Positions 5,766 to 58,118 of a DNA stretch of 64,000 nucleotides are shown piece after piece. Numbering within the stretch: position 1 is the stretch's first letter; the number at the start of each line of letters is the position of its first letter. Location: NCBI RefSeq assembly GCF_056712565.1, contig NZ_CM160072.1. One strand, written 5' to 3'. The notes beneath the pieces were generated by a model, which made no database searches, had not been told where the DNA came from, and saw only the letters and a list, made by a program, of their open reading frames with translations. Both the position numbers and the translations under genes were made by a program.

Positions 5766-5810
5766 GTGAGGAAGGCCGGGCGGGAAACTGCCCGGCATGA
5801 ACATACCTGA

Positions 5811-5900
5811 ATGGTTATCCCCGCTGACGCGGGGAACTCATATCCGGTTTTTGCTGGTGGGCCGCGCCGTTCGGTTTATCCCCGCTGGTGCGGGGAACTC
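5811..5900 (-). CRISPR. vestigial type I-E CRISPR array: two repeats and one 32-nt spacer
   Basis: Repeat 5872-5900 cggtttatccccgctggtgcggggaactc has one mismatch to the E. coli I-E repeat (reverse complement of GAGTTCCCCGCGCCAGCGGGGATAAACCG). Degenerate repeat at 5811-5839. Spacer 5840-5871 is 32 nt. Confidence 0.8.
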
Positions 5901-6238
5901 TCTAAACATAACCTATTATTAATTAATTATTTTTTAAGCCAGTCACAATCTACCAACTTTACAGTATCACACAAACAACACATCCATTATGTTAAAGAGC
6001 ACTTAATCCATTGATTAAAAAGATAAATATTTAAAATAACTCTATTCAAACTAAAATCTACCAAACTTTACCGCAATAATTTTCACTCCAGCGAAAAATT
6101 AACGCCACAGAATTTGTAGAGAATGATAATGATTAGTCCAGAATGGGCAAAATGGAGGTTTTTCAGAGGCGACAAAGAATATAAATGAGTAGAAGTCTTT
6201 ACAGATTCCACCCATTTATAACGCTTATAAATGTTTAA
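5901..6238 (-). promoter_or_regulatory. AT-rich CRISPR leader adjacent to the leader-proximal repeat
   Basis: About 340 bp of AT-rich non-coding sequence directly abutting the intact repeat, with the degenerate repeat at the distal end. Confidence 0.55.
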
Positions 6239-51349: not shown

Positions 51350-51426
<77 letters not shown>

Positions 51427-51459
51427 ATTAAAATTTGATGAAGTAAAGCAGTACGGTGA

Positions 51460-51536
<77 letters not shown>

Positions 51537-51569
51537 ATCAAAATTTGATGAAATAAAGCAGTACGGTGA

Positions 51570-51646
<77 letters not shown>

Positions 51647-51700: not shown

Positions 51701-52281
51701 TTTTTACGCTTCCTTACCCGTTTCAGTGAAGCCTGAGACAATGAGTAAACCGTTAATATCCCTCCATCAAAGCCATCCATCTTATTTATATATTAAACAT
51801 ATACCCCATTAATGAATTTCATTTATATATTCTATAAATCAATTTATTTTGGTTATGTTAACATTTCAATATCACAACAGGGCGCTACGCTTATATAATC
51901 ATTGTACAAAAAGCACACAACTTTTTAATTAGTAGAAAAATTAATAATTTTTTGTGAAAGCCCGGACAATAAGTTTAATGAATATCTTAATAGACTCTCA
52001 TACTACCCAATTTCTTAAAAGTGCAAATTTGTGAAGCTTATCCTGTTATTATTTTAAGTTTCATGCCAAATTCTCTCACCAGATAATGCCGCCCTCTTCC
52101 GAAAAATAATCAAGAGGCCAAACAATATCTAAAATGATACAACTGTATCTATTCCCCTGAAAAATACATTATTCATTTGTATATTTTCCTCATCATTGCT
52201 TTTTATTTAAATCATCCGATAATCCCCTGAATATAATTATGTCAATAACCATCAGAAAAAGTGGATGATGAGGAAAAGGAT
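51701..52281 (+). promoter_or_regulatory. AT-rich island junction and T6SS promoter region
   Basis: About 580 bp of strongly AT-rich non-coding DNA between the tRNA terminator and tssB; contains a Fur-box-like gataat...attat stretch at about 52218-52250. Confidence 0.4.
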
Positions 52282-52782
52282 ATGGCTGACAGTTTCCAGA
52301 ATGAAGTTCCCACCGCTCGTGTAAATATCAAGCTTGATCTGCATACAGGCAATGCTAAAAAGAAAGTTGAACTCCCCCTCAAGCTTCTTGCCGTAGGCGA
52401 TTACAGTAACGGAAAAGAGCAACGTCCGCTGTCCGAACGGGACAAGGTTGATATCAATAAAAACAACTTCAACAGCGTCATGGCTGAGTTTTCGCCTGCG
52501 GTTAATTTAACAGTAGAAGATACGCTAAACGGAAACGGTAATGAACAAAATATCGCGCTTGAATTTAAAAGCCTGAAGGATTTTGAACCCGAACAGGTAG
52601 CAAAAAATATTCCGCAACTTCGTGTATTACTCGCTATGCGCAATTTACTACGTGACCTGAAATCCAATCTGCTGGATAACGCAACGTTTCGCCGTGAACT
52701 GGAAAATATTCTGAAAGACCCGACGCTCAGTTCAGAACTGCGTGATGAACTGGCGAAAATTGCGCCGCAGGAGAACGTTTAA
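52282..52782 (+). CDS. tssB: T6SS contractile sheath small subunit TssB (VipA)
   Basis: 166 aa from MADSFQNEVPTARVNIKLDLHTG... with gaggaaaagga Shine-Dalgarno; ORF-track start at 52261 is an alternative. Confidence 0.85.
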   Translation: MADSFQNEVPTARVNIKLDLHTGNAKKKVELPLKLLAVGDYSNGKEQRPLSERDKVDINKNNFNSVMAEFSPAVNLTVEDTLNGNGNEQNIALEFKSLKDFEPEQVAKNIPQLRVLLAMRNLLRDLKSNLLDNATFRRELENILKDPTLSSELRDELAKIAPQENV

Positions 52783-55734: not shown

Positions 55735-56396
55735 AAAAAGATATGGATATCAATATCGATGCGCTGCTGCGCGACACGTTTCTGACGGTGGTGGAACTGC
55801 GTCAGGGAACCACCGTGCGTCACGGTATCGAGCTGTATCGCCACTGTCAGCGGCAGGTGGAACTGGTCCGCGAACGTCTGAAAGATGCCGGATTCAGTCG
55901 GGAGAACGTGGAGCACATAACTTACGCGCAGTGCGCCCTGCTGGACGAAACGGTGCTCAGCCGTAGTGGCATGGACGACGGTCAGGCCATCTGGATGAAA
56001 AACCCACTCCAGTCGCATTTCTTCAACACCCTGCAGGCCGGTGAGCTGCTGTACGAGCGGATGAAGCAGGTGCTACAGGAACCCGCCCCCGCGCAGGCCG
56101 TGCTGACCTGCTTTCACCGTGTCCTGCTGCTGGGATTTCGCGGGCGTTATCAGGATCCGGCAGCCCCGGAGCGCGACCAGCTTATTTCGACGCTCAACGG
56201 GCAGGTCGCGCCATTTGGTGTGCTGCCGGAAACGGCGGTACTGAACGTGCCGTTATCCACCCGTCAGCACCCTTTGCTGCATTCGCCATTTTTCTGGCTG
56301 GTAACACTGGCGCTGCTACTGGCGGGCGTCTGGTGGGGGCTACACCACTGGCTGAATGTACTGGTGGATGAACTGCTGCCGCAAAGCCTGCGTTAA
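55731..56396 (+). CDS. tssL: T6SS membrane-complex protein TssL (DotU/IcmH family)
   Basis: 221 aa; cytoplasmic DotU-like domain then a single C-terminal TM (WLVTLALLLAGVWWGL); start overlaps tssK stop. Confidence 0.85.
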   Translation: MKKDMDINIDALLRDTFLTVVELRQGTTVRHGIELYRHCQRQVELVRERLKDAGFSRENVEHITYAQCALLDETVLSRSGMDDGQAIWMKNPLQSHFFNTLQAGELLYERMKQVLQEPAPAQAVLTCFHRVLLLGFRGRYQDPAAPERDQLISTLNGQVAPFGVLPETAVLNVPLSTRQHPLLHSPFFWLVTLALLLAGVWWGLHHWLNVLVDELLPQSLR

Positions 56397-58061: not shown

Positions 58062-58118
58062 AACATACCGCCGGAAGAAGGCGGTGCTTCAATCACACTA
58101 ACAAGGAGAGTAATTCTC

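Follow-up and report, generated by a model that had tools for sequence, protein, structure and literature searches.

The 64-kb stretch of DNA analysed here (hereafter, the window) is 100% identical to the chromosome of Escherichia coli ATCC 11775 and carries a T6SS-1 region next to the metZWV tRNA genes, with tssB as the first gene of the cluster (Table 1). The order tssB-tssC-tssK-tssL-tagL-hcp-clpV identifies it as the E. coli T6SS-1 (sci1-like) cluster and its first gene as an annotated tssB, whose ATG is placed at 52282 by the RefSeq annotation of homologous loci. This gene order is common to the window, the sci1 cluster of EAEC 042 and CFT073, and the same arrangement occupies the same tRNA-Met site in 1336 of 5426 complete E. 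coli genomes (about one quarter); carriers include the ExPEC/APEC strains CFT073, 536 and APEC O2-211 as well as the adherent-invasive strain LF82.

Table 1. Features of the tssB upstream region and its surroundings (window coordinates)
Feature	Position	Strand	Details
mltA		-	flank of the T6SS-1 region
metZWV, three tRNA-Met genes	51350-51646	+	T6SS island insertion point
Intergenic region before tssB			635 bp, 31% G+C
Strongest Fur-like match in the intergenic region	51808-51826		ATTAATGAATTTCATTTAT; 14.6 bits
Equivalent of the 260-bp gel-shift probe of Ma et al.	52022-52281	+	T6SS1-F exact at 52022-52042; T6SS1-R exact at 52261-52281
Second-best Fur-matrix match inside the probe	52044-52062		TGTTATTATTTTAAGTTTC; 6.6 bits
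Best-scoring proximal sigma-70-like promoter	52157-52185	+	-35 CTGAAA, 17-nt spacer, -10 TATATT (52180)
Weak Fur-matrix matches over the 52157-52185 promoter	52162, 52168		3.2 and 3.8 bits
Proximal block under purifying selection (promoter, 5' leader, RBS)	52189-52281	+	0/93 differences vs strain D6
Alternative promoter	52196-52223	+	-35 TTGCTT (52196-52201), 16-nt spacer, -10 GATAAT (52218-52223); 6.8 bits
Perfect sigma-70 -10 TATAAT	52232-52237	+	no good -35 (best 2/6); source of the entire Fur score
Top Fur-matrix match in the flagged region, candidate low-affinity operator	52232-52250		TATAATTATGTCAATAACC; 7.0 bits, 11/19
tssB (vipA), T6SS-1 gene no. 1	52282-52782	+	order tssB-tssC-tssK-tssL...

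Promoter elements and conservation of the tssB-proximal block

A sequence-only reading of this region had flagged 33 bases, GATAATCCCCTGAATATAATTATGTCAATAACC, as AT-rich hexamer repeats resembling a Fur box just upstream of the tssB ribosome-binding site. The string is found verbatim at 52218-52250, its end lying 20 nt ahead of the Shine-Dalgarno region (~52270-52280) and 32 nt ahead of the ATG. Approximate sigma-70 scoring yields three overlapping candidate promoters in the proximal region, and the flagged site overlaps both the perfect TATAAT and the alternative -10 GATAAT. The GATAAT at 52218, i.e. the first of the supposed Fur hexamers, may be simply a -10 element. With any of the three candidates, a Fur dimer at 52232-52250 would be placed either on the -10 and the start or somewhere inside the transcript's first 60 nt.

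The comparison of the proximal block with strain D6 revealed no difference in its 93 positions, against 45 differences in 489 distal intergenic positions and 14 in 163 third codon positions of tssB, these neutral proxies thus diverging by about 9%. Among the 1336 cluster-carrying genomes the 77 bp at 52205-52281 fall in the identity band of at least 99% in 1126 cases and below 95% in none, whereas a distal intergenic segment of the same length is far more variable in E. coli genomes; the flagged 33 bases themselves differ at 0 or 1 position between divergent lineages of the species. Such invariance shows the block to be functionally constrained, as a promoter, leader and ribosome-binding site should be. 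It demonstrates function, not Fur binding in particular. In none of 80 tssB-ortholog loci could similarity to the promoter be detected upstream of ~52258, and for that reason only the conservation within E. coli can be used. One of these loci is that of Entomohabitans teleogrylli, whose TssB shares 98% identity with the E. coli protein. Its DNA similarity begins only 24 nt before the ATG (~52258 in the window, ~2477 in its own locus), and no tRNA lies nearby; judging from the alignment, either the whole promoter would have been exchanged or the cluster would have been transferred without it.

Fur-box likeness and its calibration

Fur-box likeness was measured with a symmetric 19-bp weight matrix (14.9 bits) obtained by iterative alignment of the K-12 MG1655 sequences of 12 DNase-footprinted Fur regions (Table 3 of Chen et al. 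2007, PMC2189734), which recovers the consensus GATAATGATAATCATTATC. The 12 training sites score 11.5-23.5 bits (7.7-22.2 bits when each is left out in turn), and the cut-off used for Fur sites by Chen et al. is at least 10 bits (PMC2189734). The classical, high-affinity operators of iron-uptake genes in this collection (fepA-fes, entC, fhuF, cirA, sodA and others; PMC2189734) resemble the flagged site in being AT-rich and in carrying GATAAT-type hexamers over promoter elements. Their scores, however, which are those of the training set itself, come with shuffle probabilities of at most 0.04, whereas the flagged region reaches 7.0 bits, a maximum equalled or exceeded with P = 0.72 when the surrounding 260 bp are shuffled with their dinucleotides preserved. 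Other descriptions of a Fur operator fare no better, the best three-hexamer array of the flagged region matching 12 of 18 positions and the best 7-1-7 element 10 of 14, both at the level of chance in the same 260-bp shuffles (P = 0.48 and 0.51, respectively).

The hexamer-repeat appearance is only weakly true. The 33 bases contain a single perfect GATAAT (52218-52223) and a single ATTATG matching at five of six positions (52236-52241), and the best 19-mers agree with the consensus at 12 (52235) or 11 positions (52232, 52229 and 52223); the flagged site has neither a good 19-bp consensus or matrix match nor at least three contiguous GATAAT-like hexamers. In the top-scoring 19-mer at 52232-52250 the TATAAT contributes 7.1 bits and the remaining 13 positions sum to about zero. 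The matrix, hexamer-array and 7-1-7 models were accordingly discarded as support, none of them raising the flagged site over composition-matched chance, and taken on sequence alone the Fur-box likeness amounts to a perfect -10 hexamer set in an AT-rich stretch and no more.

The sequence-only reading had itself proposed weight-matrix scoring as a check and a poor score as grounds for giving up the idea, and 7.0 bits is formally such a score. The calibration with EAEC sci1 nonetheless shows how little weight that verdict can bear. Its fur1 box is identifiable in EAEC 042 as TATAATGATCAAAATTAAA and scores 8.7 bits, of which TATAAT accounts for 7.1. With the same matrix the likely fur2 box reaches ~6.8 bits, both boxes fall short of a good consensus or matrix match, and the proximal 260 bp of sci1 are also non-significant by shuffling (P = 0.29). 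As these validated boxes score as poorly as the flagged site, a weak matrix score does not exclude function and is a weak criterion of refutation.

These figures bear on an alternative explanation that we regard as a serious possibility, if a doubtful one: the likeness would have arisen by chance, as a property of promoter DNA rich in A and T, the flagged bases would be just -10 elements and leader, and Fur would act elsewhere in the 260 bp (e.g. 52044-52062 or 52157-52216), or the published effects would be indirect or reflect an in-vitro affinity for AT-rich DNA. The shuffle probabilities of 0.5-0.7, a score deriving wholly from TATAAT and the further weak matches within the probe, at 52044, 52162 and 52168 (Table 1), all speak in its favour. 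Against it, 52232-52250 is the highest-scoring Fur-matrix site of the whole 52022-52281 interval, and the experimentally validated boxes of sci1 are equally weak.

Stronger Fur-like matches do occur in the intergenic region, and they were rejected as operators. Both the site at 51808-51826 and the pair at 51968/51974 (9.1/9.5 bits) lie outside the published probe, are polymorphic and coincide with no CFT073 ChIP-seq peak. The former carries a 4-bp deletion or substitutions in other lineages and is, because of this polymorphism and its position outside the probe, probably non-functional.

Further matches lie elsewhere in the window. The strongest of the entire 64 kb is GAGAATGATAATGATTAGT at 6119-6137 (18.1 bits, 15/19), which falls in the unannotated 473 bp separating the convergent genes ygcE and queE and is flanked by weaker matches at 6026 and 6217. 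At 5806-5890, there are two repeat copies, CGGTTTATCCCCGCTGGTGCGGGGAACTC and a more degenerate one, with 61 bp from start to start and an AT-rich, leader-like tract next to them; we take them to be the E. coli type I-E CRISPR repeat, and the segment looks like a remnant CRISPR array between ygcE and queE. Another match of 12.3 bits, AGATATGGATATCAATATC, is found at 55739-55757 in the tssK/tssL overlap, just inside the tssL start.

Beyond E. coli, strong Fur boxes lie ~144-198 nt upstream of some tssB orthologs sharing 72-78% amino-acid identity. They score 16-18 bits in six Citrobacter loci and in Phytobacter ursingii and 12 bits in two Klebsiella michiganensis loci, with shuffle probabilities of at most 0.01 except in one of the latter (0.06). 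Overall, 9 of 79 ortholog loci reach P ≤ 0.05 and most other genera have no such box. Judging from this distribution of matches, Fur control appears to be specific to certain lineages of this T6SS family and to have been gained repeatedly.

Published Fur experiments in APEC and in-vivo data from CFT073

In APEC TW-XM, deletion of fur or iron limitation raises the hcp1 and clpV1 transcripts of T6SS1, and the proximal promoter of tssB/vipA is predicted to hold two Fur boxes (Ma et al. 2018, Emerg Microbes Infect 7:49, PMC5874247). In the same study purified Fur gave a gel shift with a T6SS1 promoter probe and none with a probe from the tssB coding region, and point mutations in the predicted boxes both abolished the shift and derepressed vipA (tssB) in LB (PMC5874247). 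The primers of the promoter probe match the window exactly (Table 1), from which it follows that the published probe corresponds to 52022-52281 and includes the flagged 33 bases; those of the negative control map to 52387-52665, and the hcp1 and vgrG1 primers match exactly further downstream. The APEC promoter is therefore the same locus, in which the same Fur/iron reading was tested experimentally (PMC5874247), and although the window derives from an ATCC 11775-like strain and not from TW-XM, the proximal promoter hardly varies within the species. A 2023 review likewise enters APEC T6SS-1 as Fur-repressed. The serum/Fur paper of Huja et al. 2014 makes no mention of T6SS, and T6SS identifiers were not found in the Fur pan-regulon supplements (PMC10164565), a negative that depends on the identifier scheme used there and is uninformative.

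One detail of the primer set deserves a comment. The oligonucleotide named 'Del-ClpV1-F' (Ma et al., Table S2) maps inside tssB (52292-52341) and not in clpV, and 'Del-ClpV1-R' is without a match in the window (best 27/50), which suggests either a labelling slip or a deletion larger than its name implies.

The chance explanation introduced above also has against it the loss of both the shift and the repression upon point mutation of the predicted boxes (PMC5874247). On its side stands the choice of the gel-shift negative control, which is coding DNA (52387-52665) less AT-rich than the promoter probe, together with the in-vivo data available for CFT073. The 260-bp promoter of this strain is 100% identical to that of the window, with 3 differences in the 655 bp made up of the intergenic region and the first 20 nt of tssB. 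Fur ChIP-seq under anaerobic conditions with sufficient iron defined 349 peaks in CFT073 (Banerjee et al. 2020, PMC7157518), none of which lies within 3,222,400-3,222,999, an interval covering most of the tssB intergenic region (3,222,388-3,223,022) and all of the probe but its last 22 bp. The genes c3385-c3389 (tssB to tagL) are also absent from all seven supplementary tables of that study, those of the fur mutant among them (PMC7157518).

The sole T6SS-1 entry in the same tables is a weak peak assigned to c3390 (hcp) at 3,228,862, with a summit of 16.55 that lies below the 19.5 cut-off applied by the authors for promoter assignment (PMC7157518). This position corresponds to ~58118 in the window, the base before the hcp ATG at the tagL-hcp junction, where a 7.9-bit matrix match, AACAAGGAGAGTAATTCTC (~58100-58118), overlaps the hcp ribosome-binding site. 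Brunet is said to have described, in 2020, an internal Fur-controlled promoter in sci1, to which the match and the peak at the hcp junction may be related.

Taken together, the gel-shift and ChIP-seq studies fit a low-affinity operator with condition-dependent occupancy, and they equally leave room for an in-vitro artefact. Thus, of what had been proposed from the sequence, Fur and iron control of the tssB promoter is borne out by the published APEC experiments (PMC5874247), but the designation of the flagged bases as the operator is not, given their chance-level score and the lack of a CFT073 ChIP-seq peak. Control by Fur at the level of the promoter has been known since 2018; as to the bases contacted by the protein, our analysis leaves the flagged site as a plausible candidate only, by analogy with fur1 of sci1.

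It could also be argued that the AT-rich tract is mainly the target of another regulator, with Fur playing a secondary role, H-NS silencing of horizontally acquired DNA and RcsB being examples. The low G+C content of an intergenic region (31%) lying beside a tRNA insertion site, the repression by H-NS of the other APEC system, T6SS2 (PMC5874247), and the RcsB control of ExPEC T6SS-1 cited in a review are all in line with such a view, which we nevertheless judge improbable; inactivation of hns is stated not to have activated the hcp1-clpV1-vgrG1 cluster (PMC5874247, Fig. S6).

Relationship to the EAEC sci1 promoter and interpretation

Iron/Fur control of the EAEC Sci-1 promoter had been mentioned by the sequence-only reading, and the fur1 and fur2 boxes of that promoter are published (PMC3145626). 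The fur1 box, validated by experiment, overlaps both the -10 element and GATC-I and agrees with the consensus at 13 of 19 positions (Brunet et al. 2011, PMC3145626), and the interplay of Fur and Dam constitutes an epigenetic switch that yields ON and OFF subpopulations (PMC3145626; Taillefer et al. 2026, PMC13262931). Each of the two promoters has a weak Fur-like 19-mer that opens with a perfect TATAAT followed by 13 nt (8.7 bits in sci1 fur1 vs 7.0 bits here). Upstream of the coding region there is, however, no alignable similarity between the two, and homology to the sci1 promoter was consequently rejected. They differ as well in their methylation sites, sci1 having three GATC in a stretch of 53 nt, of which one falls in fur1, whereas the 635-bp region preceding tssB has no GATC anywhere and hence none within a Fur-like box. 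The absence of GATC is not significant in itself (shuffles average 1.7, P(0) = 0.15), but a switch of the sci1 type was rejected on this basis and no Dam-methylation-dependent ON/OFF behaviour is expected at this promoter. Expression of the cluster should then be uniform, free of methylation-dependent heterogeneity, as far as can be judged from the missing motif.

Considering all the evidence, we find it somewhat probable that the flagged bases belong to a conserved core promoter and leader of tssB whose Fur-like appearance stems from -10 hexamers, and over which Fur exerts a low-affinity repression. According to this proposal, the 33 bases are a piece of the conserved promoter core and 5' leader that precede the tssB operon in the T6SS-1 located at metZWV, and their Fur-box look would derive mainly from the -10-like hexamers GATAAT (52218) and TATAAT (52232), which are nearly identical to a Fur half-site. 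When iron is plentiful Fur represses the promoter, as published for APEC (PMC5874247), presumably through dimers binding with low affinity over the -10-like elements, 52232-52250 being the best candidate, and bound Fur would block RNA polymerase as at fur1 of EAEC sci1.

It is tempting to go one step further and to speculate that the metZWV T6SS-1 promoter and the non-homologous sci1 promoter have independently set a low-affinity Fur site on a TATAAT -10 element, here weakly occupied and, without GATC, giving a graded, unimodal response to iron, although we hold this extension to be rather unlikely as it stands. Were it correct, weak occupancy would account for a shift being obtained in vitro with the APEC promoter yet no ChIP-seq peak being called in CFT073, and the missing GATC would make the response to iron graded and unimodal instead of one of heritable ON and OFF subpopulations.

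As the Fur link had already been published for this promoter, our finding adds no new biology. What Fur control of this promoter means for E. coli is that the use of an antibacterial, virulence-associated T6SS is tied to iron starvation, such as that encountered in host serum.
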